Source of the DNA: an uncultured Candidatus Saccharibacteria bacterium
GTDB taxonomy: Bacteria; Patescibacteriota; Minisyncoccia; Phycocordibacterales; DATDWN01
Assembly: GCA_964391455.1 (NCBI GenBank)
Contig: CAYMJQ010000001.1
Location: 15,865 to 79,864 of the forward strand
Direction: 5' to 3'
DNA: 64,000 bases
Of this stretch, positions 555-44,880 are shown piece by piece; position 1 is the first letter of the stretch; each line of letters opens with the position of its first letter. The notes below the pieces were generated by a model. The model was given only the letters and a program-made list of their open reading frames with translations, did no database searches and was not told the DNA's origin. The translations under genes were made by a program, and so were the position numbers.

Positions 555-1367
555 ATGAAAAGAATAGCAGGAAGTATCGGAATGCTTGCATTTGCTGGAG
601 CTCTTGTATGGGGCGCTACAGGTGCATTTTTCTCAGATACAGAAGTTTCAACTGGAAATACATTTACAGCTGGAGCAATAGATTTAAAAATAGATTCAAA
701 AACTTATTACAATGGTAATGAGTGTGCTTATCTTGAGGGAACAGACACACAAGAAGCAGGTTATTACTGGACAGGAAATGCTTCTTATCCAGTTCCAGGT
801 ACACCTTGTACAGGATCGTGGGAAATTAAGAATCTAGAAACTGTAGACAAATTATTTAATTTTGACGATATAAAACCAGGTGACGATGGAAAGAATGTAA
901 TATCTATCCACGTTGAGAACAATGATTCTTGGGTTTGTGCCGCTGTTACAAATCTAACAGACTATGAAAATGGCCAAACTGAGCCAGAGGCACTCGTAGA
1001 TAATACAACGGGTCCAACTCAAGGAGAGCTATCAAGTACAATGACTTGGACAGTTTGGAAGGATTATAACGGTAACGGTGTAATAGATGGTTCAGAAGTC
1101 GCATTGGCATCTGGCAACCCAGCAAACAGTGTGTGGCCTCTTTATGATTCTACAACTGGAGGAGGTCCACTACCAGCTGGAGACACAGCATACTTGTCTG
1201 TAATGTGGGAATTGCCAAGTACATCAGGTAATGAAACTCAAACAGACAGTATGGAAGCTGATTTCTCATTTGAAGTTGTACAATCAAGAAATAATGAAGA
1301 TTTCAAATGTGTTGTCCCTGAACCAGTTGTCCCTATAGAGGATGTTCAAGATGGTGGACAAGCATAA
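555..1367 (+). CDS. Secreted TasA/camelysin-like protein with a SipW-cognate class signal peptide
   Basis: The N-terminal hydrophobic segment is followed by AFFSDTEVSTGNTFTAGAIDLKIDS. This matches the (F/Y)xDxExSxGNxFTAG signature of SipW-cognate signal peptides (TasA/CalY class). Confidence 0.6.
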   Translation: MKRIAGSIGMLAFAGALVWGATGAFFSDTEVSTGNTFTAGAIDLKIDSKTYYNGNECAYLEGTDTQEAGYYWTGNASYPVPGTPCTGSWEIKNLETVDKLFNFDDIKPGDDGKNVISIHVENNDSWVCAAVTNLTDYENGQTEPEALVDNTTGPTQGELSSTMTWTVWKDYNGNGVIDGSEVALASGNPANSVWPLYDSTTGGGPLPAGDTAYLSVMWELPSTSGNETQTDSMEADFSFEVVQSRNNEDFKCVVPEPVVPIEDVQDGGQA

Positions 1368-1406
1368 TTATAAAAAATAAATTTCTATTATTAGAAAAAC
1401 AAAATT

Positions 1407-2723
1407 ATGAAAAAAATATTATTAAGTCTAGCTACCTTGATTGTCGTCGGTGGAGCTATCGCGGGAGCAACAATTGCTTTCTATAACGATGCTGAAACAT
1501 CAAGTGGCAACATATTCACAGCAGGTTCAATAGACCTAAAAGTGGATCACTTAAAGCAAACATATAATGGGATGAATTGTGAGACATGTAGCTTGGAGTT
1601 ATTTTCAAGTGATGGTTTAACTAAAGTTGCAAGCTCAAGTCCAAACGCAACAGTTCAAACAGGATTTCCATACCCAGCAGTGTTAGTATCTAATCCTCAC
1701 AACAACTGGGTTGATCATGATCCATTGAGTTACAAATGGGTATGGGCAGAATCATCAACATCAAATAATGATTCTGGGAATATAGATGTAGAGTACTCTT
1801 TTGAAAGAGACTTTTATTGGAACGGAGTTCCAGGTGATGTCATATTTAATATGGCTCTAGCATCTGATAACGGTTATGCTATCTTTGTAAACGATACATT
1901 GCTTGTTGACAATCTTGATGATGAAGTTAACTATAATGCGACAATTCAACCACTTAATGGATTGGAAAATCAATTTAAGAATGCACTTCAACTAGGAAAC
2001 AACACTCTTAGAATAATTGTTAGAAACCATGCACAACAAGGTGGTACACCAAGTTCAAATCCTGGAGGACTTCTATACTACTTAAGTATTGAAAATGAAG
2101 CATGTGAAGATGATGCGGGATTCCAAAATGCTTGTCGTCTATGGACTGAAAAAGATCTTGAACAAGGTGATACATTCTTCAATTTTGGAGATGTAAAACC
2201 AGGAGATTTTGGAACAAATGTTATCTCTTTGCACGTTTCAACAAATGATGCTTATGCATGTTTGATTGTTAACGATAAAGATGATCAAGAAAACAACATC
2301 TATGATCCAGAGAAAAAAGCAGGAGATCTTCCTAATCAAGGAAACCCTTCTGGATATGGAGAGCTATCAAATTATCTAAATGTATTTACTTGGCACGATC
2401 TAAATAACGATGGTGCTTATGACCCAAATACTGAGGATTCTTTGGGTAGTGGATCATTAGCTTCACTTACAAGCATAATGAATCTTGATGCTACAAATGG
2501 TAAATTCCTAACATCAACTACAACTAAATACATTGGTCTAGCGTGGTGTGCAGGAGATCTTACTGAAAATAATGGAGTATTTGAGTGTGACGCAAGTGGT
2601 ATGAAAAATGATGCACAATCAGATTCATTCGCAGCATCACTTACTGCATATGCAGTTCAAACAAGAAATAATGATGAATTTGAGTGTTCAACTGTTAATT
2701 TAGATGAAGAATTAAATTCATAA
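1407..2723 (+). CDS. Second, larger secreted TasA/camelysin-like paralog with a SipW-cognate signal peptide
   Basis: The N-terminus AFYNDAETSSGNIFTAGSIDLKVD carries the same motif. A downstream internal repeat (FNFGDVKPGDFGTNVISLHV) is shared with the first protein (FNFDDIKPGDDGKNVISIHV). Confidence 0.6.
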   Translation: MKKILLSLATLIVVGGAIAGATIAFYNDAETSSGNIFTAGSIDLKVDHLKQTYNGMNCETCSLELFSSDGLTKVASSSPNATVQTGFPYPAVLVSNPHNNWVDHDPLSYKWVWAESSTSNNDSGNIDVEYSFERDFYWNGVPGDVIFNMALASDNGYAIFVNDTLLVDNLDDEVNYNATIQPLNGLENQFKNALQLGNNTLRIIVRNHAQQGGTPSSNPGGLLYYLSIENEACEDDAGFQNACRLWTEKDLEQGDTFFNFGDVKPGDFGTNVISLHVSTNDAYACLIVNDKDDQENNIYDPEKKAGDLPNQGNPSGYGELSNYLNVFTWHDLNNDGAYDPNTEDSLGSGSLASLTSIMNLDATNGKFLTSTTTKYIGLAWCAGDLTENNGVFECDASGMKNDAQSDSFAASLTAYAVQTRNNDEFECSTVNLDEELNS

Positions 2724-2759
2724 AGTTAAGAGTTAAATCTAGATAAAAAATTTAGACTT

Positions 2760-2801
2760 ACCTCGTAACCTACCTGAAATATTCAGGTAGGTAATCGAGG
2801 T
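2760..2801 (+). promoter_or_regulatory. Compound nested hairpin between the second TasA-like gene and sipW: a 10-bp perfect inner stem (CCTACCTGAA/TTCAGGTAGG) nested in a 6-bp outer stem. No U-tract follows
   Basis: The inverted repeats were read directly. The structure lies in the 100-nt gap inside an apparent operon, so it may be a processing or attenuation site. Confidence 0.3.
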
Positions 2802-2824
2802 TGGTCTGAAGAATTGAAAAATAA

Positions 2825-3367
2825 ATGAAAGCTCTTCAAAAATTATTATATTGGGTTTTTCTTGGTGGGGTTATTGCTATAGCTCTGTTTCTACTTAGCA
2901 CAATCTTTCCAATACCGGGTGGATACAAAGCACTTATCGTAACCTCTGGTTCTATGGAACCAGCAATAAAAACAGGAAGTATGGTTTTGGTAAGACCAAC
3001 TGATTTGTATAAATCTGGAGACGTAATAACTTTTGGAGGAGGAACAAGCAGGATTCCTACTACTCATAGAATAATTGATGTAAGTGTAAAAAGCGGGGTT
3101 GAGTACTATAAAACCAAAGGAGATGCTAACGAAAATGTAGATAATCTAGAGGTTTCTAAAAATGATGTTCTCGGAAAAGTTATTTTGGATATACCATATG
3201 CTGGATATATTGCCGACTTTGCAAAACAACCACTAGGATTTGCTTTTTTAGTTGGTATACCAGTTTCTTACATAATTTTTGATGAAGTATCAAAAATTAT
3301 AGCTGAAGTAAAAAAACTAAGAAAGAAAAAAGAAGAAGATATAGAAAATACTGAAAACAATGGTTAA
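2825..3367 (+). CDS. sipW: Signal peptidase I, SipW/archaeal-eukaryotic type
   Basis: An N-terminal TM segment is followed by the catalytic SGSMEP motif (ALIVTSGSMEPAIKTGSMVLV) and THRII. The gene is embedded between SipW-cognate substrates, and its 3' end overlaps the next gene by 8 nt. Confidence 0.75.
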   Translation: MKALQKLLYWVFLGGVIAIALFLLSTIFPIPGGYKALIVTSGSMEPAIKTGSMVLVRPTDLYKSGDVITFGGGTSRIPTTHRIIDVSVKSGVEYYKTKGDANENVDNLEVSKNDVLGKVILDIPYAGYIADFAKQPLGFAFLVGIPVSYIIFDEVSKIIAEVKKLRKKKEEDIENTENNG

Positions 3368-5033
3368 AAAAATACCTAAAAAAAGAAAAGTTTCAAAAAG
3401 AAAAGTGAGTGTTTTTAATAAAATACTTACACAGTCTTTAATTGCAAAAACTTTTTCTCTGTTTTTGATTTTTTCTCTGTCTTTTTTAAGTTTAGCCCCT
3501 ACTACAAATGCTTATTATAATGATATAGAAAAAAGTGTTGGAAATATATGGACTGCTGGGATATTAGATTTTGTAATAAAAAAGAAATTATTTGAAGCTT
3601 CTATAGGTCCAGAGGTCTTGGCTGAAAAAACACATGTTTCTGTTATGGCTCCAACGAATGGAAGTTTGCCAATAAAGTACACACTAAATAGTTTTATTAA
3701 AAAAGAAGATGCGGGGTTATGTGGAAAGCTTTTTGTAGAAGCTAAATTAAATGGTTTAACAAAATACTCAGGTCCATTTTCAAGTCTTATAAACAGCACC
3801 ACAACAACATTTGGAACATGGGAATTTCTATTTGATATGCCACCAGAAACAGTTGCTTCTCATGGAGACATTTGTCAGGCAGAAGCAATACTTTTTGGTT
3901 GGAGAGCAGATTCAGAGACTCCAGAAGAAAGTGTATTTACAGACACAGAAAAAATATCTTTTTCTTTCAAGGCAAAAATGGTGGTGTTAAATGAAATATA
4001 TCCAAGACCAGATGGAAGTTTGCCAGAACTTAGTCAGGAGTATATAGAACTATATAACAACGGTTCTACACCGGTTGATTTGGCTGGATGGAAAATATCT
4101 GATATGGCAAGCACTTCAGAAAAGTTTTATACAATAACCTCAACACCAGGTCCAAATACAGCCATATCTGTTGGTGGTTCCACAGTTCTACCTCCTTTAG
4201 GTTTTCTTGTGTTTAATTTGAGTGATGGTACGACTTTAAATAATTCAGGGGATACTGTTAGACTTTATGATAATAATAATGTTTTGCAAGATGCTTATAC
4301 ATACCCAGCTGTTCCAGAAGGGAAATCAATTGTAAGATTTCCTGACGGTATTGGTTTTTGGATAGATCCAGAGCCAACACCGGGAATTTCAAATGTTATT
4401 TCACTGGAAGATTTAGAAAATTCTGGTTTAGATAAGGAAACAATAAGACAAATTATTGCTTTAGCAGAGATGAAAAATGCCACAATAGTTTCTCAAGATG
4501 AAGAAAGTAATATGCAAGATATTACAAATGAGTTAATAGAAGATTTAGAATTATCTGAAATTCCAGAAGAATCAGCAACAAGTACAGAAGAAGTTATTGA
4601 AGAAGTTGTTCATGCTGAAAATATTACAGAAGAAGTTTCTCTTTCAAATGAGAATATAAAAGACACAACAGAAGAAGTTACAGAAGAAGATTCGGAAATC
4701 CTTGATGAGGTTTCTACAAGTACAGAACCATCACTTGTAGAAGGAGAGAATGAAATACCGCAGAAAATTACAGAAGAAAATGAACCTAACTTAGTAATAC
4801 TAGAAGCAGAAGAGGTTGTGGCCGAAGTTCCTCCATACAAAGAGGAGGAAATGTTTGAGATAGAAAATACTGAAAATAATATAGAAAGTACAGAAACTAA
4901 TTCTGTGATAGAGGAAATCGTAATCAAGGAGGAAGAAGTCGTATTCATACCCGAAGCACCAGAAACTTTATTCGCAGAAATTCCAGTTGTAGAAACTCCG
5001 AAAGAGGAGATATTACCGGAAATAGTTTGGTAA
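3360..5033 (+). CDS. Large secreted protein with a SipW-cognate signal motif (AYYNDIEKSVGNIWTAGILDF), a lamin-tail domain (LTD) and a long acidic Glu-rich low-complexity C-terminal tail
   Basis: The LTD signature is LNEIYPRPDGSLPELSQEYIELYNNGSTPVDLAGWKISD. The C-terminal 230 aa are dominated by E/T/S/I/V repeats. The gene is translationally coupled to sipW. Confidence 0.6.
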   Translation: MVKKIPKKRKVSKRKVSVFNKILTQSLIAKTFSLFLIFSLSFLSLAPTTNAYYNDIEKSVGNIWTAGILDFVIKKKLFEASIGPEVLAEKTHVSVMAPTNGSLPIKYTLNSFIKKEDAGLCGKLFVEAKLNGLTKYSGPFSSLINSTTTTFGTWEFLFDMPPETVASHGDICQAEAILFGWRADSETPEESVFTDTEKISFSFKAKMVVLNEIYPRPDGSLPELSQEYIELYNNGSTPVDLAGWKISDMASTSEKFYTITSTPGPNTAISVGGSTVLPPLGFLVFNLSDGTTLNNSGDTVRLYDNNNVLQDAYTYPAVPEGKSIVRFPDGIGFWIDPEPTPGISNVISLEDLENSGLDKETIRQIIALAEMKNATIVSQDEESNMQDITNELIEDLELSEIPEESATSTEEVIEEVVHAENITEEVSLSNENIKDTTEEVTEEDSEILDEVSTSTEPSLVEGENEIPQKITEENEPNLVILEAEEVVAEVPPYKEEEMFEIENTENNIESTETNSVIEEIVIKEEEVVFIPEAPETLFAEIPVVETPKEEILPEIVW

Positions 5034-5047
5034 ATAAATAGAATAAT

Positions 5048-6433
5048 ATGAAAAATTTAATTATAAAAAATAATATTTTAAGTAGAGCATTTCAATTTTT
5101 TGGAATGATGATCCTGGGAATTTTATTTTTTTCATCTTCTGCTTTGGCACAGACTCCTGTTATTGAAATAACTTTCGGTAGTAATCCACTTTTTAATGTT
5201 TCTAATTTTCTTCCCGGAGACACTGAAACAGCTTCTGTTGAAATAAAAAACAATAGTGATACAACACAATCTGCTTATGTTGAAGCGGTGACTGTTGTAG
5301 ATCCAGATAATCTCGCTAGCCAGATGCTTTTTAGAATTTTTGATGGAGTAAATCAGATTTATACTGATTCTTTTGAAGATTTTTTAAACGCAGGTCCTGT
5401 TTCTCTTAGTAACATTTCTTCTGGACAGGTAAAGGATTATGAATTTAGAGTATCTTTCATAGATTCAACAGATAATGATTATCAAGGAAAAACTCTCGGG
5501 TTTAATCTTTGTTTTGGTTTTTCTGGTGGGAATCAGTATTGTACAAACACAACCTCTGTTGGCGGTGAGCAAGGGACCGGCGGAGGGGGTGGCGGTGGTG
5601 GTAATACCACTACAACTTCCGGAGGTGGGGGAAATGGGCCACTACAACCACAATCACTTTTAATATTTAATGAAAACGTACAAGATGTCGGAGAAGGTTT
5701 TGTTCCAGAACCTACAGCTTCTGCTACTATAGTTTGGAATACAAATATTCCAGCTACTTCTCAAGTGATTTATGGACCAGACACTGGAGTTTATACTTTC
5801 GATATAAACAATCTTCCTGGATTCGGTTATCCTTTTTGGACTGAAGAAGATTTAACTAAAGTTACCAATCATTCTGTTTTAATAACTGGACTTATACCAG
5901 GTCAAACCTATGTTTATCGTGTTGTCTCAAGAGCCTCTCCACCTACAATAAGTTATGAGCATAAATTTATAGTTCCTATTTTGAAAAATAAAAACAGCAT
6001 ATCTTCGGCTGGAGGTATTGATTGGTCAAATAATAGTTACGAGACAGAGACAAATACTCAGAATTCTTATCAAAATGATGTTTCTAATAATGAAGATAAC
6101 CCTGAAGCTTCATCAAATAATGAATCAAATTTAGCAGCAGTAATCTTTTCTGATTTTGGAGGAATTGTCTCAATGTGTAGTCTGCTATCACTTTTGTTAT
6201 TAGTTTTGCTTTATTTAGTATGGAGTTTCTTTGTTAGGAAAAAATACGAGAAAAAAGGACTTCCTGAACATAAAATAAAAAGATTGTTCTACATATATTC
6301 CATTACAGTAATTTCATTTATAATCTTAATTTTGATTATAATAAGACAGTATTGTCCATTACCTGTACTTTTGGTAGCTCTCATTGTTATTTTGGTAAAA
6401 TTTTTGCTGGATAGAAATAAATTATCGTCTTAA
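5048..6433 (+). CDS. Signal-peptide protein with a Gly-rich linker, an FN3-like domain (purple-acid-phosphatase-N-like) and C-terminal transmembrane anchors
   Basis: It has an N-terminal signal peptide ending ALAQTP and a GGGGGGGGNTTTTSGGGGNG linker. The FN3-like segment is TASATIVWNTN...GLIPGQTYVYRVVS. Two or three hydrophobic helices sit at the C-terminus. Confidence 0.5.
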   Translation: MKNLIIKNNILSRAFQFFGMMILGILFFSSSALAQTPVIEITFGSNPLFNVSNFLPGDTETASVEIKNNSDTTQSAYVEAVTVVDPDNLASQMLFRIFDGVNQIYTDSFEDFLNAGPVSLSNISSGQVKDYEFRVSFIDSTDNDYQGKTLGFNLCFGFSGGNQYCTNTTSVGGEQGTGGGGGGGGNTTTTSGGGGNGPLQPQSLLIFNENVQDVGEGFVPEPTASATIVWNTNIPATSQVIYGPDTGVYTFDINNLPGFGYPFWTEEDLTKVTNHSVLITGLIPGQTYVYRVVSRASPPTISYEHKFIVPILKNKNSISSAGGIDWSNNSYETETNTQNSYQNDVSNNEDNPEASSNNESNLAAVIFSDFGGIVSMCSLLSLLLLVLLYLVWSFFVRKKYEKKGLPEHKIKRLFYIYSITVISFIILILIIIRQYCPLPVLLVALIVILVKFLLDRNKLSS

Positions 6434-6486
6434 TTCCAAATTTATTTTCAAGGTTTTGATGTAACGTGTATAATACTTATACGTCT

Positions 6487-6993
6487 ATGGATACGGATAT
6501 AAAACATAGGGAGTTTATGCTTGCATACGAAGAAAATGCGGATGCGCTCTTTAGACAATGCTTTTTTAAAGTTCATGATAGAGAATTAGCAAAAGATATC
6601 CTTCAAGAAACTTTCACTAGAACGTGGGATTATTTGGCCAAAGGCAAAGAAATATTGAATATGAAAGCGTTTTTATACAGAACAATGAACAATCTGGTTA
6701 TAGACCATTACAGAAAGAAAAAACTAGTATCTCTCGATGTCTTGTCTGAAGATGGTTTTGATCCACAAGCCGAAGAAGGGATTACAGCGAACGACAGAAT
6801 GGAAGGTGCAAGAGCATTAAAACTTTTAGAAAAAATACCTAATCCTTATAGAGATGCTGTGTATATGAGACTGGTTTCTGGCCTAGAGTTGAGAGAAATT
6901 TCAGATATAACAGGAGAAGAAGTTAATACAGTATCGGTTCATGTCCATAGGGGTTTAAATAAATTAAGAGAATTATTTAAAGAAAATGGATGA
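6487..6993 (+). CDS. ECF-type RNA polymerase sigma-70 family factor
   Basis: Region 2 (ETFTRTWDYL, NNLVIDHYRKK) and the region 4 HTH (LELREISDITGEEVNTVSVHVHRGLNKLRE) are present. The listed ORF start at 6466 lies inside a TGTATAAT -10 box, so the ATG at 6487 is the more likely start. Confidence 0.8.
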   Translation: MDTDIKHREFMLAYEENADALFRQCFFKVHDRELAKDILQETFTRTWDYLAKGKEILNMKAFLYRTMNNLVIDHYRKKKLVSLDVLSEDGFDPQAEEGITANDRMEGARALKLLEKIPNPYRDAVYMRLVSGLELREISDITGEEVNTVSVHVHRGLNKLRELFKENG

Positions 6994-7513
6994 TTTTAAA
7001 ATAACAAAAGAAGAGCAAAAGATAATAGATTCTGCAAAAGAAGTTGTTTTAAGTTTGTCTGAAAAAAATGAAATAAAAAATAAAATTATTTCATATACAA
7101 ATTCTCACCCAATTACTAATCCTAAAAAAATATCAGTATTTACTAAATTTGATTTTATCTATCACAAAAGTACATATCTAATACCGGCTTTGGTTGTAGT
7201 GCTTTTGGTGGTTGGCCTAAACTTTAATCAAAATAATACTGGACAGATTACTTCTATTGAAAATACAAGTGACAATATTTCTCCTTCGGAAACTTTTGAT
7301 ATGAGAGCTTTTTCTGTGCAGATGGTAAGTGACGAAGATGTGTCAGAACCAAAAATTGAAGATGGTGTAGTAATGATGATGGCTAGTATTGAGGCCCCTA
7401 CATCTACTGAATATGAAAGTGAAGATGAAAATGAGACAATTGGAATATTTGAAAAAATAAAAAATAGAGTTAAAGCATTTTTTAAATATTTTGTAGATAC
7501 GGAACAAAAGTAG
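6986..7513 (+). CDS. Putative anti-sigma factor (single-pass membrane protein) coupled to the ECF sigma factor
   Basis: Its start overlaps the sigma stop (ATGGATGA). It has a central TM helix (LIPALVVVLLVVGL). There is no sequence-level homology, so the call rests on context only. Confidence 0.4.
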   Translation: MDDFKITKEEQKIIDSAKEVVLSLSEKNEIKNKIISYTNSHPITNPKKISVFTKFDFIYHKSTYLIPALVVVLLVVGLNFNQNNTGQITSIENTSDNISPSETFDMRAFSVQMVSDEDVSEPKIEDGVVMMMASIEAPTSTEYESEDENETIGIFEKIKNRVKAFFKYFVDTEQK

Positions 7514-7528
7514 TGGTATAATTATAAT

Positions 7529-8068
7529 ATGAAAAGTGAAACAGCTATCTTTGCGGGGGGTTGTTTTTGGTGTACTGAAGCAGTTTTCAAGATGCTTAAA
7601 GGGGTTAATTTTGTAACTCCTGGTTATTCTGGTGGTAAAATTAAATATCCGACTTATGCTGAGGTAAGTATGGGAGATACAGGTCATGCTGAATGTATAA
7701 AAATAGAATATGATCCAGAGGAAATTAGTTATAATGACTTACTCACTGTGTTTTTTGGCTCACATGATCCAACTACATTAAATAAACAAGGCGCAGATAT
7801 TGGTACTCAATATAGATCTGTAATTTTTTATACGACGGAAGAACAGAAGAAATCTGCTACAGATTTTATAAAAAAACTTAATGAATCAAGTAAGGAAGGT
7901 AAACCTATAGTTACAGAAGTTTTACCATTTATAGCATTTTTTGAAGCAGAGAATTATCATAAAGATTATTATGAAAGAAATAAAGAAGATTCGTATTGTG
8001 AACTAGTAATCAACCCTAAACTTGAAAAGGTCAAAAAAGATTTTTTAAATTTATTAAAAAATAAATAA
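7529..8068 (+). CDS. msrA: Peptide methionine sulfoxide reductase A
   Basis: The GGCFWCTEAVF active-site motif is near the N-terminus. Confidence 0.9.
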   Translation: MKSETAIFAGGCFWCTEAVFKMLKGVNFVTPGYSGGKIKYPTYAEVSMGDTGHAECIKIEYDPEEISYNDLLTVFFGSHDPTTLNKQGADIGTQYRSVIFYTTEEQKKSATDFIKKLNESSKEGKPIVTEVLPFIAFFEAENYHKDYYERNKEDSYCELVINPKLEKVKKDFLNLLKNK

Positions 8069-8076
8069 AAAATATT

Positions 8077-8445
8077 ATGGAAATAGATGAAGAAGAATTA
8101 AAGAAAAAACTAACTCCAGAGGAGTATTTTGTTTTAAGGGAAAAAGGTACAGAAGCTCCATTTTCTGGGAAATTACTACACGATGATAGAAATGGTATGT
8201 ATAAATGTAAAGTTTGTGGACAAGATCTATTTAGTTCTGATGCAAAATTTGATTCTGGTACTGGTTGGCCAAGCTTTGATAGAGCTGTATCTGGAAGTGT
8301 CATAGAAGCAGATGATAATACTTTAGGGGTGCATCGGGTAGAAATAACTTGCAGTAAATGTGGCTCACACTTAGGTCATGTTTTCCCAGATGGACCGACA
8401 GGGACTGGAAAGAGGTATTGTTTGAACTCAGTTTGTTTGTTATAG
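8077..8445 (+). CDS. msrB: Peptide methionine sulfoxide reductase B
   Basis: Two CxxC Zn pairs (CKVCGQDLF, CSKCGSHLGHVF) and GWPSF are present. Confidence 0.9.
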   Translation: MEIDEEELKKKLTPEEYFVLREKGTEAPFSGKLLHDDRNGMYKCKVCGQDLFSSDAKFDSGTGWPSFDRAVSGSVIEADDNTLGVHRVEITCSKCGSHLGHVFPDGPTGTGKRYCLNSVCLL

Positions 8446-8521
8446 GACTTTCAAATTTGGGCAATCTCATCTTCTAAAATTTTGAATTCGTTAACTGATA
8501 AAAACTAGAAACTAGTTTCTC

Positions 8522-9571
8522 TTGTGGTATAATTTAATAATGGATAAAAATCACTTACAAACATATTTTTTCGTAAGTATTTTATTAATTGTTACTGTTT
8601 TAGTTTTTGCTTTGTTTTTGCCGTTTCTTGAAGTTTTGGTGTTGTCTACTATTTTTGGTGTTGTTCTTACCCCACTACACAGAAGAATTTTGCCATTAGT
8701 TGGAGGCAGGAGCTCTTTATCTGCTCTCATTGTACTTTTGTTTTTTGCTGTTGTAGTTATAACACCGACAATATTTTTAACAATGAAGATTTTTGATGAG
8801 TCAAGGGATGTATACAGTCAATTAACTTCTGATTCACAAGTTGATTATTTGCAAAAGATGACTCTTGCAATTGAGCAGCCGATTCAAAAAATTTACCCCT
8901 CTTTTTCGGTTGATATAGGACAATATGCAGAATTATTTGCTGATTGGATAACAGTACATTTAGGTGCTATATTGTCTAGTTTACTTAACATTTTCATTGG
9001 AATTTTTCTTATTTTTATTTCACTATATTTTTTCCTAAAAGATGGGGCAAAGTTTAAAAAAATACTAGTTAACTTAAGCCCTCTAAAAGATAAATATGAT
9101 GATGAAATTTTTATAAAAATAAAGCAGACTATAAATTCAGTGGTTCGAGGTGTTATTTTAATTGCTATTGCCCAAGGAATTCTTTCCGGTCTGGGTATGT
9201 GGGTTTTTGGTATACCTAATGCTACTTTGTGGGGGAGCATCTCGGCTGTTTCTTCTCTTGTCCCTGGCATAGGAACAGCACTAGTTTTTATACCTGTTGT
9301 TGCATACCTATTTATCTCCGGAAATATACCTTTTGCCATAGGGCTACTTTTGTGGGGGGCACTTATAGTAGGTCTTGTAGATAATGTTATGGGACCGTAT
9401 TTGTATTCAAAAGGTACGGAAGTACATCAACTTATTATGCTTTTTGCAGTTTTGGGAGGTCTGTCAGTTTTTGGGCCAATTGGTTTTATTTTCGGACCTT
9501 TAATTATTGGTTTGTTTTTTGCATTAATAGATATTTATCAGAATATTATTTTAGATAATAAGTCATTATAA
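8522..9571 (+). CDS. AI-2E family (PerM/UPF0118) transporter
   Basis: The protein is multi-TM with GLVDNVMGPYLYSKG. An extended -10 (TGGTATAAT) at 8523-8531 suggests the true start is the ATG at 8540. Confidence 0.8.
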   Translation: MWYNLIMDKNHLQTYFFVSILLIVTVLVFALFLPFLEVLVLSTIFGVVLTPLHRRILPLVGGRSSLSALIVLLFFAVVVITPTIFLTMKIFDESRDVYSQLTSDSQVDYLQKMTLAIEQPIQKIYPSFSVDIGQYAELFADWITVHLGAILSSLLNIFIGIFLIFISLYFFLKDGAKFKKILVNLSPLKDKYDDEIFIKIKQTINSVVRGVILIAIAQGILSGLGMWVFGIPNATLWGSISAVSSLVPGIGTALVFIPVVAYLFISGNIPFAIGLLLWGALIVGLVDNVMGPYLYSKGTEVHQLIMLFAVLGGLSVFGPIGFIFGPLIIGLFFALIDIYQNIILDNKSL

Positions 9572-9585
9572 ATTAATTAAAAAAT

Positions 9586-10098
9586 ATGAGAACACCATCA
9601 TTTTTAACATCAATTTACGATACAGTTTTTTCTAGTAAAAAAATGGTTCCAGTATGGACTATCGCTCGTGTATATTTGGGATACGAGTGGCTGGTGGCAG
9701 GTTATGGAAAAATAACAAATCCAGTTTGGGTTGGGGAAAATGCTGGAGGAGCATTAACTGGTTTTGTAAATGGAGCTTTGACAAAAACAGTCGGAGATCA
9801 CCCTGATGTTTCTATGTGGTACGCATGGTTTTTAAAAAATGTAGTTTTGCCAAATGCAGACAGTTGGTCACATGCTATAGCGTATGGAGAATTTTTTGTT
9901 GGAATAGGTTTGATTCTAGGTGCTTTTACTTTTCTCGCAGCTTTTTTTGGTGCTTTTATGAATATGAATTTTCTACTTGCCGGAACAGTGAGTTCAAACC
10001 CAGTTTTACTACTACTTGCAATATTAGTTATGACTGCACATAAAGTTGCTGGTTACATAGGTTTGGATTACTACATACTAAAAACCGGCAGGTATTAA
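9586..10098 (+). CDS. DoxX-like small integral membrane protein
   Basis: It has four predicted TM helices and DoxX-like topology. The sequence match is weak. Confidence 0.45.
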   Translation: MRTPSFLTSIYDTVFSSKKMVPVWTIARVYLGYEWLVAGYGKITNPVWVGENAGGALTGFVNGALTKTVGDHPDVSMWYAWFLKNVVLPNADSWSHAIAYGEFFVGIGLILGAFTFLAAFFGAFMNMNFLLAGTVSSNPVLLLLAILVMTAHKVAGYIGLDYYILKTGRY

Positions 10099-32232: not shown

Positions 32233-32262
32233 CCGGTTTTTGTATTTGTAAACTAAGACTGT
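32233..32262. terminator. Bidirectional terminator hairpin (GAACCGGTCGC-TTTG-GCGAACCGGTT) shared by the convergent small ORF and the MltG-like gene
   Basis: An 11-bp stem was read directly, with T-runs on both sides. Confidence 0.5.
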
Positions 32263-33053
32263 AAATATTTTTTAATGTTAGCTTTATGTTCTTCGTATGT
32301 TCTGGCACAGTGAATTTTTCTTTTTTTATCGTGTATGTAGAACATACAGTTTGTTTTTTGCGGGTTATAGGCGGCTTCAATAGCAGAAAGTCCTGGGTTG
32401 GCTATCGGACTAGGAGGAAGCCCTGTTTCTTTATATGTATTATAAGGAGAATTTATTCCTTTATCACTCGGTTCTACTTGTCCCCACCATCCATCTTCTT
32501 CATTTCCTTTAGCATATTGTAGTGTCGCATCCATCTGAAGTTTCATTCCGGCCCAGATTCTGTTCCAGATTACACCTGATATAAGTCTCATATCATGCTT
32601 GCCGGCAGCTTCTCGTTGTATTATGGACGCTATTTTTAAAGCAGTATCTTCGTTTATTAATTCTTTTCTTTTTTGTTTCCTTACTGCAGAAGTTTCTCTT
32701 AAGAATTGTTTTAGCATTACTGCAGTCACTCCCATAGGGTCTTCATCTTTATGTAAAAGATATGTTTTTGGAAAGTATTTTCCTTCTAAATTATTTGTAT
32801 TAAGGGCTAGGTGAGCGTTTATAAAACTATTTTTTTCTTTATCATCCCATCCTAATTTTGAGCCAACTATTTCTGCTATTTCCTCTTTTCTTAATCCTTC
32901 TTGTATACGTACTATTTTTACTGAAGGATTGGCAAGATTTTGGTAAAAAGAAAGTGTGCCTAGTAAAGAAAGGTCTATATTGTGGTAACTTAACATTCCA
33001 ATAAGAGTTCCTACAGACAAAGTAAAGAATATTATAGTTGTTCTCCAAGACAT
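32253..33053 (-). CDS. mltG: Endolytic murein transglycosylase MltG/YceG family
   Basis: There is an N-terminal TM. The YceG-family signature GLPPSPIANPGLSAIEAAYNP is present, together with upstream conserved blocks. Confidence 0.7.
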   Translation of the reverse strand: MSWRTTIIFFTLSVGTLIGMLSYHNIDLSLLGTLSFYQNLANPSVKIVRIQEGLRKEEIAEIVGSKLGWDDKEKNSFINAHLALNTNNLEGKYFPKTYLLHKDEDPMGVTAVMLKQFLRETSAVRKQKRKELINEDTALKIASIIQREAAGKHDMRLISGVIWNRIWAGMKLQMDATLQYAKGNEEDGWWGQVEPSDKGINSPYNTYKETGLPPSPIANPGLSAIEAAYNPQKTNCMFYIHDKKRKIHCARTYEEHKANIKKYLQS

Positions 33054-33977: not shown

Positions 33978-34018
33978 GATATAAGAGCTGTCAATTTCTG
34001 ACAGCAAGGAGGTTTTTT

Positions 34019-34810
34019 GTGAAGAACATCGTTTGGTGTGTTTTTGTTCTGGGTCTTCTCGTTGCTCTGGAGGGCGACGTCAAGGCCCAGATCGGCGGTG
34101 TCCAGCTGGACACCACCTGTGTCACTGGGACCGAAGGGGGTTGCAAGCCCCCGACGGAACCCACCCCCGCCCCAGGGCCTCCCGGACCGCCGGGACCCCA
34201 GGGCCCTCCGGGGCCGGCTGGTCCACAGGGGCCCGAAGGACCCAAGGGGGATCCGGGTCCCCAGGGGCCCGAAGGCCCTCCTGGACCGCCCGGAGGCGAG
34301 TGCGTCGAGAACATGAGTGAGTGGGCTCACTGGGATGGGGACGTCCCGTTGGTCTACATGGATACCACAGACGTGATGCTCACGATCCCCCGGGGCAATT
34401 GTCGTCCCAACGACATGCTTTGGTATGATCGTGAGTCGCGGGTGATGCTTTTCTGGGATTACAATCACCCTTCCGGAACCCCGCACGTTACGGGATTCCG
34501 TCGTGGTGGGGAAATTCCCGTCTGGACTCACATTGCTGTGCTGACGCCTCGAGTTTTTCATTTCGTGGCATCGGCTCCGCACAACCACGGACCCAACAGT
34601 CCGGCAAGGTTTCCAACGCATTTCTGCACAGTCGGCCTGGGGAACATGATCCTTGGGGCGACAAAGAAGGGTGTCTACTACGGTTCATACCCCATCACCA
34701 TCCTCACAACATACGGGACGATTCCACTCACGGAAATCACCCCGGAAGTGTGGGAAGCAATGGTCGGCCACGACCATGACCACATGGAGATGACTCCTCC
34801 CGGCAAGTAA
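34019..34810 (+). CDS. Secreted collagen-like triple-helix repeat protein (13 G-X-Y triplets, [40 protein letters not shown]) with a 170-aa C-terminal globular domain. It is encoded in a 60% GC island
   Basis: It uses a GTG start 7 nt after AAGGAGG. There is a signal peptide ([16 protein letters not shown]) and a His-rich C-terminus (GHDHDHMEM). The gene has its own promoter and terminator. The GC composition contrasts sharply with the flanks. Confidence 0.6.
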
Positions 34811-34842
34811 CACGTCGTCAGTAACACCGACGACAACAACAA

Positions 34843-34884
34843 CCCTCAGCTACGCACCGTATGTGTGCGGGCTGGGGGTTTTTC
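34843..34884. terminator. Long GC-rich hairpin followed by T5 that terminates the collagen-like gene. It also lies just past the stop of the convergent CPA2 gene
   Basis: CCCTCAGCTACGCACC...GTGTGCGGGCTGGGGG followed by TTTTT. A second hairpin (GTCGTC...GACGAC) is at 34814-34834. Confidence 0.55.
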
Positions 34885-34887
34885 TAA

Positions 34888-36582
34888 TTATGAAATTTTC
34901 GGATGTTCGTGGCCGCTTTTTATTCTGTAATTTATTGATTCAATGTGTTTATTTTTTAACTCTTCTCTTTTTTCTGGATTTTTATGTAATGAAATACTTA
35001 TTTCCGCTGCGTATTTACCACCCAGAAAGTGAGGTAAGATTACATAATTTACACCGTTTTGATAATGTTCTAAAGCATCTTGTATTTTGTGAGAGACAAC
35101 CATCACCAAAGCATTTGGATTATTTTCGCGAACTATTTTATTGATTAAAAAATTTGCTTCTGGATCTGGTATTGTGGATACAATAGTCTCTATTTCAGAG
35201 AAATCTAGATTTTGCAAATAATCCAAAGTAGTCGCGTCTCCGTAATCAACATTTAATCCTTTTTCTTCCAATTCTTTTATAATTTCAGGGTTATGATCCA
35301 CAACTAAAAATGGTTTGCCTAATTTTTTAAATTCTTCAATAAAGTCATAACCAACACGATTGCCACCAAAAAGAATTACAGGATATTTGATATTTTTTTC
35401 ATTTTTTTCAAAGGCGTTTTTTCTTTCAAAAATTCCTAGAAACGGAGATAGTATTTTGTAAATATAATCAGAGTGCAAAATAAAGTAAGTAGATACAAAT
35501 ATAGTGATAATTCCAATAAGAGTAGTTAGAGCCAAGGTTTCATTACTTACATGACCATAAGCCACTCCCATAGCGATAAGAATTAGAGAGAATTCACTTA
35601 TTTGAGCAACGGTAAAACCTGTTTGCAAGCTAGTTCTTTTTTTATAACCCAAGACACCCATAATAACCATAAGTATAAGAGGGTTACCGATAAGGACTAA
35701 AAGTGAGAATATTATAGCTTTCGGTAGTTGTTCTCCCAGTATGTCAAAATTCATATGAGAACCTAGTATTATGAAAAATATGACAATGAAAAAGTCTCTT
35801 AAGGGCGCCATTTTTGCACTGATTTCATGTCTGCTTGGTAGTGTAGAAAGAGCTATTCCGGCGATAAGAGCTCCTGTTTCTATAGAAAAACCAGTTAATT
35901 TAAAGATGCTGGCTATCCCCAAACCCCAAACAGTAGCAAACATAAATAATATTTCTATGTCTTTTGCCAAAAATTTATTTAATTTTGGAATTACGTATAA
36001 TCCAAAACTTACTATTGCAGTGATTAAAACAAACCCTCGTGTAATAATGTAAGCAATCTCTTCATAACTAGATTCTCCAATAGATATAAGTGGAATTATA
36101 AATATCAATATTACAGCGATGAAGTCTTGAACCAGCAAAAAACCTATGGAAATTTTTGCATACAAAGTTTCCATATCTCCTTTATCGGAGATAAGTTTCA
36201 TTATTATAATAGTGCTACTGAAAGCTAGAGCTACAGATATGTAAAGTGATGAGACAATATCAAAACCAAGTAGTTGTGCTGTAAAATATCCAGCAAAAGA
36301 CGTGATGACTACTTGACCTAGACCAGTTATGACTGCTACTTTTCCAAATTCACGTATAACTTTTGGACTTAGGTTAAGCCCGACAGTAAAAAGAAGAATA
36401 GCTATTCCTATTTCTGAAAAAAGTTGAAATGTTTCTGTGGAAACTTGTATTGCGACTAAAGGACCTATTATAAGACCGGTTATTATGTGACCGATTATAA
36501 GGGGTTGTTTTAATAAATGCATTATTAATGCAACAACAAACGCAATTCCAATAAGCAAACTAAATTCCGTAAATAAAGTCAT
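34888..36582 (-). CDS. Monovalent cation:proton antiporter-2 (CPA2, KefB-like) with a C-terminal TrkA-N (RCK) domain
   Basis: It has 12-13 TM helices with Na+/H+ exchanger motifs. The C-terminal Rossmann region is VILFGGNRVGYDFIEEF. Confidence 0.8.
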   Translation of the reverse strand: MTLFTEFSLLIGIAFVVALIMHLLKQPLIIGHIITGLIIGPLVAIQVSTETFQLFSEIGIAILLFTVGLNLSPKVIREFGKVAVITGLGQVVITSFAGYFTAQLLGFDIVSSLYISVALAFSSTIIIMKLISDKGDMETLYAKISIGFLLVQDFIAVILIFIIPLISIGESSYEEIAYIITRGFVLITAIVSFGLYVIPKLNKFLAKDIEILFMFATVWGLGIASIFKLTGFSIETGALIAGIALSTLPSRHEISAKMAPLRDFFIVIFFIILGSHMNFDILGEQLPKAIIFSLLVLIGNPLILMVIMGVLGYKKRTSLQTGFTVAQISEFSLILIAMGVAYGHVSNETLALTTLIGIITIFVSTYFILHSDYIYKILSPFLGIFERKNAFEKNEKNIKYPVILFGGNRVGYDFIEEFKKLGKPFLVVDHNPEIIKELEEKGLNVDYGDATTLDYLQNLDFSEIETIVSTIPDPEANFLINKIVRENNPNALVMVVSHKIQDALEHYQNGVNYVILPHFLGGKYAAEISISLHKNPEKREELKNKHIESINYRIKSGHEHPKIS

Positions 36583-42523: not shown

Positions 42524-43561
42524 ATGAGTGAAAAAACAATAATAAAATTCAAACCTAAACAAGTGGTCAAAAAATTACTTTCTGTTGTTGGTGATAGAGC
42601 TAAAGATGTGCTCACATCTAGATTTGGACTAGGTTCCGATACAAAAAGAATGACTCTTGAAGCCATAGGTAAAAAATACAAAATTACCAGAGAGAGAGTG
42701 CGACAAATTGAAAACTACTCAATTATAAACATAAGAAAATCAAAAGAATACGCAAAAGAGAAGGAAGCTTTTGATGAATTATTAAAACTGATAACAGAGA
42801 TGGGGTCTACTGTTTCTGAAGATCATCTTTTAAAACATATATCTAAAGATAAATCTATTCAAAATCATGTTCATTTTCTATTGGTAATAGGAGAGAGTTT
42901 TGTAAAAGAAAAAGAAGATCCTGAATTTAAGCATAGATGGTCAGTAGATAAAGAACTGTCCAAGAAAATTCACTCATCTCTTAAAGAGTTATATTCTTCT
43001 ATTTCAGACGACGAGATTCTTTTAGAATCAGATATGATAGAAAAGTTTTTGAATAATATAAAGGATGTTTCTGAAAAATATAAAAATGAAGAGATAGCAA
43101 GAAGATGGCTTGCTTTATCAAAATTAATTGATAAAAACCCTCTTGGAGAGTGGGGTAAAACAACTTCACCAAATATTAATGCTAAGGGTATGAGAGACTA
43201 TGCTTATCTAGTGATAAGAAGACATGGATCACCTATACACTTTAGAGAAGTAGCGAAACTTATAACAGAATTATTTAATAAAAAAGCACACGTCGCTACA
43301 ACACATAACGAACTAATAAAAGATCCTCGCTTTGTTTTGGTTGGTAGGGGACTTTATGCGCTTTCTGAATGGGGTTATATGAGTGGAGTTGTAAGAGATG
43401 TTATAAGAGGTATTTTGGAAAAAAATGGTCCACTTACAAAAGAAGAGATAATAAACAAGGTTCTTAAAGAAAGATATGTGAAAGAAAATACTATAATGGT
43501 GAATCTTCAGAATCCAAAATTCTTTAAAAAATCAAAAGATGGTAGATATAGTATAGTTTAA
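42524..43561 (+). CDS. Protein with an N-terminal sigma-70 region-4-like HTH and an uncharacterised C-terminal 250 aa
   Basis: LTSRFGLGSDTKRMTLEAIGKKYKITRERVRQIENYSI closely resembles sigma-70 region 4.2. Regions 2 and 3 are absent. Confidence 0.4.
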   Translation: MSEKTIIKFKPKQVVKKLLSVVGDRAKDVLTSRFGLGSDTKRMTLEAIGKKYKITRERVRQIENYSIINIRKSKEYAKEKEAFDELLKLITEMGSTVSEDHLLKHISKDKSIQNHVHFLLVIGESFVKEKEDPEFKHRWSVDKELSKKIHSSLKELYSSISDDEILLESDMIEKFLNNIKDVSEKYKNEEIARRWLALSKLIDKNPLGEWGKTTSPNINAKGMRDYAYLVIRRHGSPIHFREVAKLITELFNKKAHVATTHNELIKDPRFVLVGRGLYALSEWGYMSGVVRDVIRGILEKNGPLTKEEIINKVLKERYVKENTIMVNLQNPKFFKKSKDGRYSIV

Positions 43562-43626: not shown

Positions 43627-44880
43627 ATGATAGATTTTTTCATTGATCTTTTTACTGATCCAATGTTTTTGTCTGTGTTTAGGATATTATTTGAAACTGC
43701 TTTTATATGGTTTCCTATATTGTGTTTATTTATAGCTTGGGAGCTTTGGGTAAGGTATGTACAAGCTATATTTTTTTCGAAACAAAAATATGTATTGCTT
43801 GAGATAAAAGTTCCTAGAGAAGTTTTTAAGTCACCTCAAGCTGCAGAATTTTTTATAAACAGCCTTAGTCAAACTGGCGGTGAATCCAACTGGTATGAAA
43901 AATACTGGAAGGGACAAGTTAGATCTTGGTTTTCTCTTGAAATTACATCCATAAACGGTGCAGTACATTTTTTTATTTGGACAAAAGTCGGACATAAAGC
44001 AGTTATAGAAGCAAACCTATATTCACAATATCCTGGAATAGAGGTATATGAGACTGAAGATTACACTTTACCAGTATCATATAATCCTGAAATAAATACT
44101 GTCTGGGCAACTGAATTTGATTTAACTAAACCAGATGTTTTTCCAATAAAAACATATATTGATTATGGATTAGAAAAAAACCCGGAAGAAGAATATAAAA
44201 TAGATCCACTAACTCCTCTTATAGAATTTTTGGGATCTATACCAAGAGATCAACAAGTATGGATACAGATACTCGTTAGGGCTCACAAAGAAGAAAACAA
44301 AGATCCTGTAACTGGAAAACTAGTTGATTTACGTTGGGCAAAAGCAGCTCAGACAGAAATAGATAAAATTATATCTAGTGCAAAAGGAGAAAAAGATAAA
44401 GAAGGAAAATTGGTTCCTGGAACAGGAAGACAACTAACTGATGTTGAGAAAGAAACCATAAATGCATTAGGTAGAAGTATTTCTAAAAAAGGCTTTGATG
44501 TCGGTATGAGAGCGGTGTACATAACCCCGAAAGATTCGTTTAACCCAAGTAATATTGGTGGCATAATTGGAGGTATTACTCACTTTAATTCAAGTTTAAA
44601 TGGTTTTAAACCAGCGAGAGGATCTTCTGATAAATACAGTTTCTTTCTGCTTGCCTGGAAAGATAGAAGTCAGAAAAAGAAACATGAAGAAAAGGCTGAT
44701 TTATTAGATAAGTACAAAAGAAGAGCTTATTTTCATAAACCGTTCAAAAGTCCTCATTTCGTCTTGAATTCAGAAGAATTAGCAACAATATTTCATTTTC
44801 CTGGAGGAGTTTCAGTTACCCCAACATTCTCTAGAATTGAATCTAAAAAAGCAGAGGCTCCAAGCAATCTTCCTGTTTAA
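43627..44880 (+). CDS. Hypothetical membrane-anchored protein (417 aa)
   Basis: It has two N-terminal TM helices and a large soluble domain with no recognisable motif. Confidence 0.35.
   Translation: MIDFFIDLFTDPMFLSVFRILFETAFIWFPILCLFIAWELWVRYVQAIFFSKQKYVLLEIKVPREVFKSPQAAEFFINSLSQTGGESNWYEKYWKGQVRSWFSLEITSINGAVHFFIWTKVGHKAVIEANLYSQYPGIEVYETEDYTLPVSYNPEINTVWATEFDLTKPDVFPIKTYIDYGLEKNPEEEYKIDPLTPLIEFLGSIPRDQQVWIQILVRAHKEENKDPVTGKLVDLRWAKAAQTEIDKIISSAKGEKDKEGKLVPGTGRQLTDVEKETINALGRSISKKGFDVGMRAVYITPKDSFNPSNIGGIIGGITHFNSSLNGFKPARGSSDKYSFFLLAWKDRSQKKKHEEKADLLDKYKRRAYFHKPFKSPHFVLNSEELATIFHFPGGVSVTPTFSRIESKKAEAPSNLPV

Follow-up and report, generated by a model that had tools for sequence, protein, structure and literature searches.

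A five-gene TasA/SipW-type cassette in Patescibacteria encoding a candidate membrane-anchored donor-strand filament

The DNA analysed here, hereafter the window, is a 64,000-nt stretch of contig CAYMJQ010000001.1 from an uncultured Candidatus Saccharibacteria bacterium. At positions 555–6433 it carries five consecutive genes (g1–g5) that probably form a cassette for a Sec-exported, chaperone-free, donor-strand filament of the TasA superfamily, anchored in the membrane. Two further genes follow, encoding an extracytoplasmic function (ECF) sigma factor (g6) and its neighbour (g7). All seven open reading frames (ORFs) listed in an earlier note on this DNA are present on the + strand, at the coordinates given below. 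The central proposal of that note, namely a TasA/SipW-type cassette equipped with its own signal peptidase and the cognate substrates, is supported by hidden Markov model (HMM) matches, predicted fold, and synteny.

Genes of the cassette and their products

The cassette opens with two TasA-like paralogs: g1 (555–1367, + strand, 270 aa), which is short and a candidate shaft subunit, and the longer g2 (1407–2723, + strand, 438 aa). The internal sequence block that had been described as common to both is indeed present, as FNFDDIKPGDDGKNVISIHV in g1 and FNFGDVKPGDFGTNVISLHV in g2, and the C-terminal core of g2 is the same as that of g1. In addition, g2 carries an insert of ~190 aa (residues ~50–245), which may be a carbohydrate-binding-like module. 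The inserts of g2 homologs match galactose-binding-like modules (DUF642 in 6 of 27, MAM, and CBM96) and GH2_N; the insert of the window g2 itself has no such match.

Because no sequence-level link was found between the g1 core and TasA, the fold was tested by structure prediction, with models of g1 and of the N-terminal domain of g5. A TasA-like jelly-roll was predicted, with a moderate match; the best structural matches are TasA, AbpA, and the Sulfolobus threads, AbpA being the second-best for g1, and the structural alignments to TasA have 16–20% sequence identity. The predicted fold is thus not unrelated to that of TasA, as the earlier note had expected, though the match is moderate. With the TasA equivalog model NF046066, g1 scored 13.5 bits against a cutoff of 450; judged by its sequence, g1 is a distant member of the superfamily and not a TasA ortholog.

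Among the family models named in the earlier note, TIGR04088 (g1 and g2), TIGR02228, and PF00932 gave the anticipated matches, detailed below, whereas PF12389 matched g1 at the N-terminus only (37.2 bits, cutoff 22.5, aligned residues 2–51) and g2 below the cutoff (20.0 bits). The Pfam name of PF12389, together with the 37.2-bit match of g1, would invite a reading of g1 and g2 as camelysin-type (Peptidase_M73) metalloproteases with no structural function. This is hardly credible and was rejected: the aligned part is confined to the signal and donor region (residues 2–51), no HExxH-type motif was seen on reading the sequences of g1 and g2, and the current view of TasA is that of a fibre subunit.

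Three proteins, g1, g2, and g4, had been said to carry a SipW-cognate motif at the end of the signal peptide. The presence of the motif is borne out in all three. With TIGR04088 (NCBIfam, SipW-dependent-type signal peptide; cutoff 19 bits), g1 scored 21.8 bits and g2 23.8 bits. On its own, g4, whose motif region reads YYNDIEKSVGNIWTAGILDF, gave no TIGR04088 match; it was recognised by a motif HMM built solely from the N-termini of the g1/g2 family, which, among the 146 ORFs of the window, matched g1, g2, and g4 only (24.8 bits and E 9e-8 for g4; E 0.87 for the next ORF). Alignment of the g4 family N-terminus with the g1 family by hhalign gave a probability of 98.1% (E 1e-13), and TIGR04088 is matched by 17 of 36 g4 homologs. 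The motif consensus is (F/Y)(F/Y)(S/N)DxExSxGNx(F/W)TAGx(I/L)D(L/F). A strict regular expression undercounted the motif in g4 homologs (10 of 78), and the HMM count (57 of 74) was used instead.

By prediction, however, the motif does not close the signal peptide but follows the cleavage site. The cleavage sites of g1, g2, and g4 were predicted by alignment to TasA, FNDIKS...F.SGTLDL in TasA corresponding to FSDTEVS...FTAGAIDL in g1. Cleavage is predicted after A24 in g1, with the donor-type motif FFSDTEVSTGNTFTAGAIDL at residues 25–44 (nt 627–686), and likewise after A24 in g2, with the motif FYNDAETSSGNIFTAGSIDL at nt 1479–1538. In g4, an extended basic n-region and an h-region precede a predicted cleavage after A51 and a donor-type motif at residues 52–71 (nt 3513–3572). 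In TasA, SipW cuts before A28, and residues 28–38 serve as a donor strand by which the following subunit is completed (PMC9674648). The motif of g1, g2, and g4 aligns with this donor strand region (TasA residues 28–46), and in the g1 monomer model the motif region is disordered. The conserved motif would therefore be more than a peptidase recognition signal, since it lies C-terminal to the predicted cut and corresponds in the alignment to the donor strand of TasA; by sequence, most of it appears to belong to the N-terminus of the mature protein, where it is a candidate donor strand.

According to PMC10269814, a Phe at P2′ renders the TasA site incompatible with LepB. The P1′/P2′ residues are FF, FY, and YY across g1, g2, and g4, and, by analogy with that incompatibility, the aromatic pair would explain the need for a dedicated ER (endoplasmic reticulum)-type peptidase. 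A twin-arginine motif is absent from the n-regions of g1 (MKRIAGS), g2 (MKKILLS), and g4 (K-rich).

Such a peptidase is encoded by g3 (2825–3367, + strand, 180 aa), an ER/archaeal-type, SipW-like signal peptidase I. Its SipW type is confirmed by TIGR02228 (104 bits, cutoff 51.85), while the score with the Bacillus SipW equivalog NF046067 (111 bits) is under the cutoff of 190. The protein has hydrophobic segments at both the N- and C-terminus. In an alignment of six sequences, Ser43 (SGSMEP), His81 (TTHRI), and Asp100 (KGDAN) are invariant, and we take these, from established knowledge of SipW and Sec11, to be the catalytic residues of a Ser-His rather than Ser-Lys enzyme. The translational coupling claimed for g3 and g4 corresponds to a real 8-nt overlap (ATGGTTAA), and across 76 loci the median gap from SipW to the g4-like gene is also −8. 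Five other loci (L029, L053, L056, L058, and L078) have a SipW-like ORF of 387–534 aa, two to three times the usual length, and no separate g4-like ORF, which suggests SipW–g4 fusions or frameshifted assemblies.

The 101-nt spacer between g2 and g3 (2724–2824) is the sole sizeable intergenic gap in the cassette. It contains a stable RNA hairpin (2751–2810, + strand) with a minimum free energy of −37.4 kcal/mol (z = −7.7), and none of 200 dinucleotide shuffles folds as well. Spacers of 50–250 nt before SipW in 40 other loci are similarly structured (z < −2 in 93%, median −5). As a candidate attenuator within the operon or element of mRNA stability, the hairpin would set the ratio of major subunits to accessory proteins. 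Its high stability, together with the structured state of comparable spacers, suggests differential expression of the shaft genes and the accessory genes.

The third substrate, g4 (3360–5033, + strand, 557 aa), is a candidate tip or nucleator and a minor subunit. Behind its donor-type motif follow a small TasA-like jelly-roll (residues ~67–205, nt 3558–3974), a lamin tail domain (LTD; residues 206–315, nt 3975–4304), and a Glu-rich tail (residues 346–557, nt 4395–5030). The LTD had been recognised earlier and is confirmed by PF00932 (59 bits, cutoff 34.3); it is present in 35 of 36 family members. The tail is acidic as described, with 30.7% D+E and 4% Lys+Arg, but is 212 aa rather than 230 aa in length, and at 557 aa g4 is not the "giant" protein it had been called. 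An acidic tail is found in 81% of long g4 homologs.

The last gene, g5 (5048–6433, + strand, 461 aa), encodes a candidate membrane anchor and terminator. Its signal peptide is an ordinary one, with predicted cleavage after A34 (between ALA and QT), some three residues before the first core strand. The mature protein consists of a TasA-like jelly-roll without the donor motif (residues 35–165, nt 5150–5542), a Gly-rich linker, an FN3-like domain (residues ~206–312, nt 5663–5983), an Asn/Ser/Glu-rich spacer, and three C-terminal transmembrane (TM) helices (residues 373–456, nt 6164–6415). The earlier description of an FN3-containing membrane anchor is upheld by the PF16656 match (36.1 bits, above the cutoff) and by these three hydrophobic helices.

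A small TasA-like jelly-roll, overlooked by the earlier note, is common to g4 and g5: g4 residues 67–178 align by hhalign with g5 residues 37–156, in its N-terminal domain (97.5%, E 5e-12), and the g5 domain aligns weakly with the g1 core (66.7%, E 5e-5). On the strength of these two alignments, a TasA-like jelly-roll is common to all four non-enzymatic proteins of the cassette, which complement one another in their other features. In ~80 loci, the donor motif is present in 153 of 169 g1/g2-class proteins, in 57 of 74 of the g4 class, and in 1 of 51 of the g5 class; C-terminal TM helices are found, respectively, in 1 of 169, 1 of 74, and 46 of 51.

These counts bear on whether there is a filament at all. 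Alternatively, g1, g2, and g4 might each act on their own at the surface or after secretion, for example as adhesins that bind glycans, and have in common a dedicated peptidase for which the motif would be no more than the recognition determinant. The moderate similarity of the fold to TasA and the resemblance of inserts in g2 relatives to carbohydrate-binding modules would fit this. Nevertheless, it is unlikely: the motif lies C-terminal to the alignment-based cleavage site, at residues that make up the donor strand in TasA; the g1 monomer model shows it as disordered; and g5 retains the jelly-roll while specifically losing the motif and gaining an anchor, for which strand exchange offers the ready explanation.

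Distribution and gene order among relatives

Homologs of g1 number 1503, and all of the named ones are from Patescibacteria, which fits the suggestion of the earlier note that the DNA comes from a small-genome, possibly episymbiotic organism. Some are labelled at NCBI as "SipW-dependent-type signal peptide-containing protein", "TasA family", or "CalY family", and relatives of g5 are labelled only as "fibronectin type III domain-containing protein". When GTDB species representatives were scanned with SipW as the anchor, at least 535 relatives were returned, of which the best 80 were kept; these 80 loci are titled as Patescibacteria/CPR (Candidate Phyla Radiation) or unclassified bacteria, except for two (L083 and L084) titled as uncultured Gammaproteobacteria.

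Gene order was surveyed with iterated HMMs on 84 loci, with correction for contig ends. TasA-like genes lie 5′ of SipW in 65 of 66 loci, and the g1/g2 pairing is repeated in most. A g4-like gene directly 3′ of SipW was found in 59 of 63 loci and a g5-like gene downstream in 45 of 63, with both present in 44 of 63. The cassette genes are thus found together across many related genomes, as had been anticipated.

Two loci show unusual neighbourhoods. A variant cassette in L005 (7495–20467) has four TasA-like paralogs, some with SpaA_2, CLIPPER, or DUF642 domains, a short g4-like protein without an LTD, a g5-like protein in which a peptidoglycan-binding domain replaces FN3, and a sortase gene downstream. 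On a 201-kb metagenome contig (L004), a cassette whose proteins are ~50% identical to those of the window is preceded, ~2 kb upstream (6500–8222, minus strand), by genes whose products match the Pfam domains CsgG, CsgF, and CsgE. CsgG, CsgF, and CsgE are curli secretion components of diderm bacteria, and their presence near this cassette is unexpected for a monoderm-like Patescibacterium.

Proposed filament and comparison with known systems

In the proposed mechanism, g3 would cleave the signal peptides of g1, g2, and g4 after T-x-A, by homology to SipW/TasA, exposing an N-terminus with two aromatic residues. The exposed segment would be a donor β-strand completing the jelly-roll of the next subunit, a role proposed because the motif aligns with TasA residues 28–46 and the fold matches, so that g1 and g2 would polymerise head to tail. 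Polymerisation is suggested by the position of the motif relative to TasA residues 28–38 and by the disordered N-terminus of g1. As the minor subunit, g4 would supply the first strand, start the fibre, and sit at its distal tip as a binding module made up of the LTD and acidic tail. Since g5 has a jelly-roll without a donor strand, it would only accept a strand and would therefore cap the cell-proximal end, where its FN3 spacer and TM helices would fasten the fibre to the membrane. The g2–g3 hairpin probably holds the accessory proteins at sub-stoichiometric levels. Polarity, the division of roles between g4 and g5, and a biological role in which the filament would serve in attachment to surfaces, hosts, or sister cells, which is plausible in Patescibacteria, are likewise put forward as proposals.

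A close architectural parallel is offered by the haloarchaeal Tat-fimbriae (Tafi), which have a dedicated signal peptidase I (TafD), a proposed tip (TafC), shaft pilins (TafA/E), and a proposed anchor (TafF) that combines a jelly-roll with TM helices at its C-terminus (PMC11821415, PMC12337348). TafD would correspond to g3; the TafA/E shaft pilins, with their N-terminal donor strand, to g1 and g2; TafC, the proposed tip and activator, which is a minor subunit of larger size that combines a donor strand and a binding domain, to g4; and TafF, a pilin-like jelly-roll with TM helices proposed as terminator or anchor, to g5, with three TM helices in both H. hispanica TafF and g5. One g4 homolog matches the NCBIfam TafC model (E 7e-13). 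In architecture, the cassette matches the tip, shaft, anchor, and peptidase plan of Tafi, the roles being inferred in both systems.

However, the cassette differs from Tafi in several respects. The window proteins match no Taf model, and the hosts of Tafi are haloarchaeal, whereas those here are Patescibacteria. Tafi proteins have Tat signals and those of the cassette Sec-type signals, for which reason the cassette is not regarded as a member of Tafi. In addition, the Tafi tip bears a laminin-G-like domain in place of the LTD and acidic tail of g4, the g5 anchor has an extra FN3 spacer, and no counterparts of TafB or TafG were seen at the cassette.

Similarities to the Bacillus subtilis tapA-sipW-tasA and B. 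cereus sipW-tasA-calY loci include an ER-type SipW encoded beside substrates with the TIGR04088 motif and a minor donor-strand accessory protein, TapA, comparable to g4. TapA has been proposed as the supplier of the first donor strand to TasA (PMC9674648). Unlike in Bacillus, the TasA-like genes come first here, followed by sipW and then the accessory genes; identity to TasA in structural alignments is 16–20%, with no sequence match beyond the N-terminus; and the SinR/SlrR regulation of Bacillus has no counterpart. Because the equivalog scores are well under the cutoffs, the window proteins are not orthologs of Bacillus TasA and SipW. To our knowledge, Bacillus has neither a membrane-anchored TasA-like terminator with FN3 nor an LTD/acidic-tail subunit.

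A third comparison is with the archaeal bundling pili (AbpA and AbpB) of Pyrobaculum, made of TasA-superfamily jelly-roll pilins that use donor-strand complementation (PMC9245690). For AbpB, the larger neighbour, a role as source of the first strand and as adhesin has been proposed, in which it is analogous to g4, whereas the Abp locus is without a dedicated peptidase (PMC9245690), has other accessory genes, and belongs to hyperthermophilic archaeal hosts.

Another possibility is compatible with an anchored filament and not mutually exclusive with it: with the same structure, the TasA-like proteins might be released as a matrix or bundling scaffold gluing cells of the same kind together, rather than forming a host-attachment organelle. 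The nearest structural matches, TasA, AbpA, and the Sulfolobus threads, are indeed filaments of the biofilm or bundling kind, Tafi promote biofilm formation, and g5 is missing in ~29% of loci. On the other side, a membrane-anchored, acceptor-type protein is kept in 45 of 63 loci, and the LTD and acidic tail of the conserved g4 speak for a directed structure that is attached to the cell and has a tip for binding. A released scaffold is accordingly held as a possible but less favoured role.

Several observations weigh against the anchored donor-strand filament. The argument is built from domain content, homologies, predicted folds, and gene-order conservation, from which polymerisation itself is inferred, and the cleavage sites come from alignment alone. 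The PF12389 match is confined to about the first 50 residues of g1, and a 48-sequence g1-family profile run against all PDB sequences did not find TasA, returning just a chance match (E 2.4). The g4 jelly-roll might accept a strand as well, in which case g4 could have another position in the fibre. With g5 missing from ~29% of evaluable loci, anchoring is not universal or is done by other proteins. Finally, no T-tract follows the hairpin at 2751–2810, so that its regulatory function, including any termination there, is proposed with caution.

With these points considered, the anchored filament remains the probable interpretation, and it would matter in a field where the attachment of Patescibacteria to hosts and surfaces is largely obscure outside the type IV pili of Saccharibacteria. 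The cassette is among the more widely conserved surface-structure loci of Paceibacteria-type lineages. If the interpretation is correct, it offers a concrete, testable candidate for a filament of attachment or matrix, in which the tip, shaft, and anchor proteins can be identified, and extends the TasA/Tafi tip–shaft–anchor plan from Firmicutes and archaea to CPR bacteria. A bolder version would have an undescribed, phylum-wide Patescibacteria pilus, that is, a Sec/SipW donor-strand filament running from the g5 terminator to the g4 LTD/acidic-tail adhesin and tethering Paceibacteria-type episymbionts to their hosts, with an ancestry shared with Tafi and bundling pili and hence an ancient monoderm/archaeal system; this we regard as doubtful.

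PF12389 homologs in Patescibacteria have already been mentioned in one sentence (PMC9245690). Among open-access papers and preprints, none was found that describes the five-gene cassette, the LTD/acidic-tail subunit, or a TM-anchored TasA-like terminator in CPR. Because the parts are at present annotated piecemeal or as hypothetical, the complementary TasA-like domains of g4 and g5 should be useful for annotation.

The adjacent ECF sigma pair and other features of the window

Directly downstream of the cassette lies g6 (6466–6993, + strand, 175 aa), which overlaps g7 (6986–7513, + strand, 175 aa) by 8 nt. That g6 is an ECF sigma factor, as the earlier note stated, is confirmed by TIGR02937 (63.5 bits, cutoff 42.9) and by matches to PF04542 and PF08281, sigma-70 regions 2 and 4 being the only ones present. 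g7 has one TM helix, and family scans gave no match to an anti-sigma family; its identity as an anti-sigma factor is assigned from position only. A promoter-like site, TTTTCA-18-TATAAT (6445–6474), overlaps the GTG start of g6 at 6466, and homologs align from residue 6–8 only, for which reasons the true start may be the ATG at 6487.

The earlier note had also taken the sigma pair as part of the filament module. A dedicated regulator at 6466–7513, making one self-contained unit with the cassette, would agree with the position of the pair, which begins just 32 nt beyond the end of g5 and on its strand, with the lack of a terminator-like site between g5 and g6, and with one locus (L039) in which the pair lies ~7.5 kb downstream of a cassette. 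Co-conservation was not found, however, with an ECF sigma gene within 10 kb in only 3 of 84 cassette loci. The gene packing is, moreover, tight throughout the window.

The relatives of g6 point elsewhere. A metagenome scan returned eight close relatives (58–78% identity), each accompanied by a g7-like gene (8 of 8). In all eight loci, the sigma and g7-like genes lie directly upstream of the methionine-sulfoxide-reductase genes msrA and/or msrB, with both present in six; by way of exceptions, L091 has no msrB match, L094 is without msrA, and L088 ends inside msrA. A permease match follows the msr genes in six of the eight and DoxX in three. The order sigma, g7-like, msr, permease, DoxX equals that at 6466–10098 of the window, the part as far as the permease matching 6466–9571. 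Cassette genes were not found upstream in the four sigma-relative loci that have 4.8–7.9 kb of upstream flank.

The relatives of g7 are longer (335–400 aa) and have a C-terminal cytochrome b5-like domain in all eight cases, which suggests a redox or haem sensor, and an extracytoplasmic DUF5667 domain in seven of eight. The window g7 is a shortened form that lacks both domains and is reduced to the N-terminal cytoplasmic part, the TM helix, and a brief acidic segment; because msrA begins 15 nt past the g7 stop, no remnant of the lost domain is left. Both the msr linkage and the cytochrome b5-like domain of the g7 relatives speak against a regulator of the cassette, and such a role is very unlikely; the single ECF-regulated module was largely refuted by the 3 of 84 co-occurrence and the 8 of 8 msr linkage. 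The ECF pair is instead a separate oxidative-stress module together with msrA/msrB, and the sigma pair most likely regulates these methionine-sulfoxide-reductase genes. That the pair lies next to the cassette is a consequence of how closely genes are packed in this genome.

The window as a whole has a G+C content of ~33%. Because its remaining genes are ordinary chromosomal housekeeping genes (UvrABC, Ddl, LeuRS, AlaRS, RpoA, DnaK, and similar), the context of the cassette is a normal chromosomal one. An Rfam scan of the window found two tRNAs only, with no match within the cassette, and a promoter scan was uninformative (33 sites against 36 expected), giving no operon boundaries. At 348–392, ~160 nt 5′ of g1, a hairpin with a 20-bp stem is followed by a T-rich tract and has no Rfam match; it could be the terminator of the preceding transcription unit or a piece of a long leader.

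Elsewhere, no Pfam match at E ≤ 1e-5 was obtained for the ORFs at 43627–44880 (417 aa), 52788–53963 (391 aa), and 54016–55398 (460 aa). A G+C spike at 34001–36000 (0.44, against ~0.32 elsewhere) overlaps a gene at 34888–36582 (minus strand) for a Na+/H+ exchanger with a TrkA_N domain, and this gene may have been horizontally acquired. Two YceG paralogs are present in the window, at 32253–33053 (minus strand) and 44910–45926, and a gene at 42524–43561 encodes a 345-aa protein that joins Sigma70_r4 and HARE-HTH domains.

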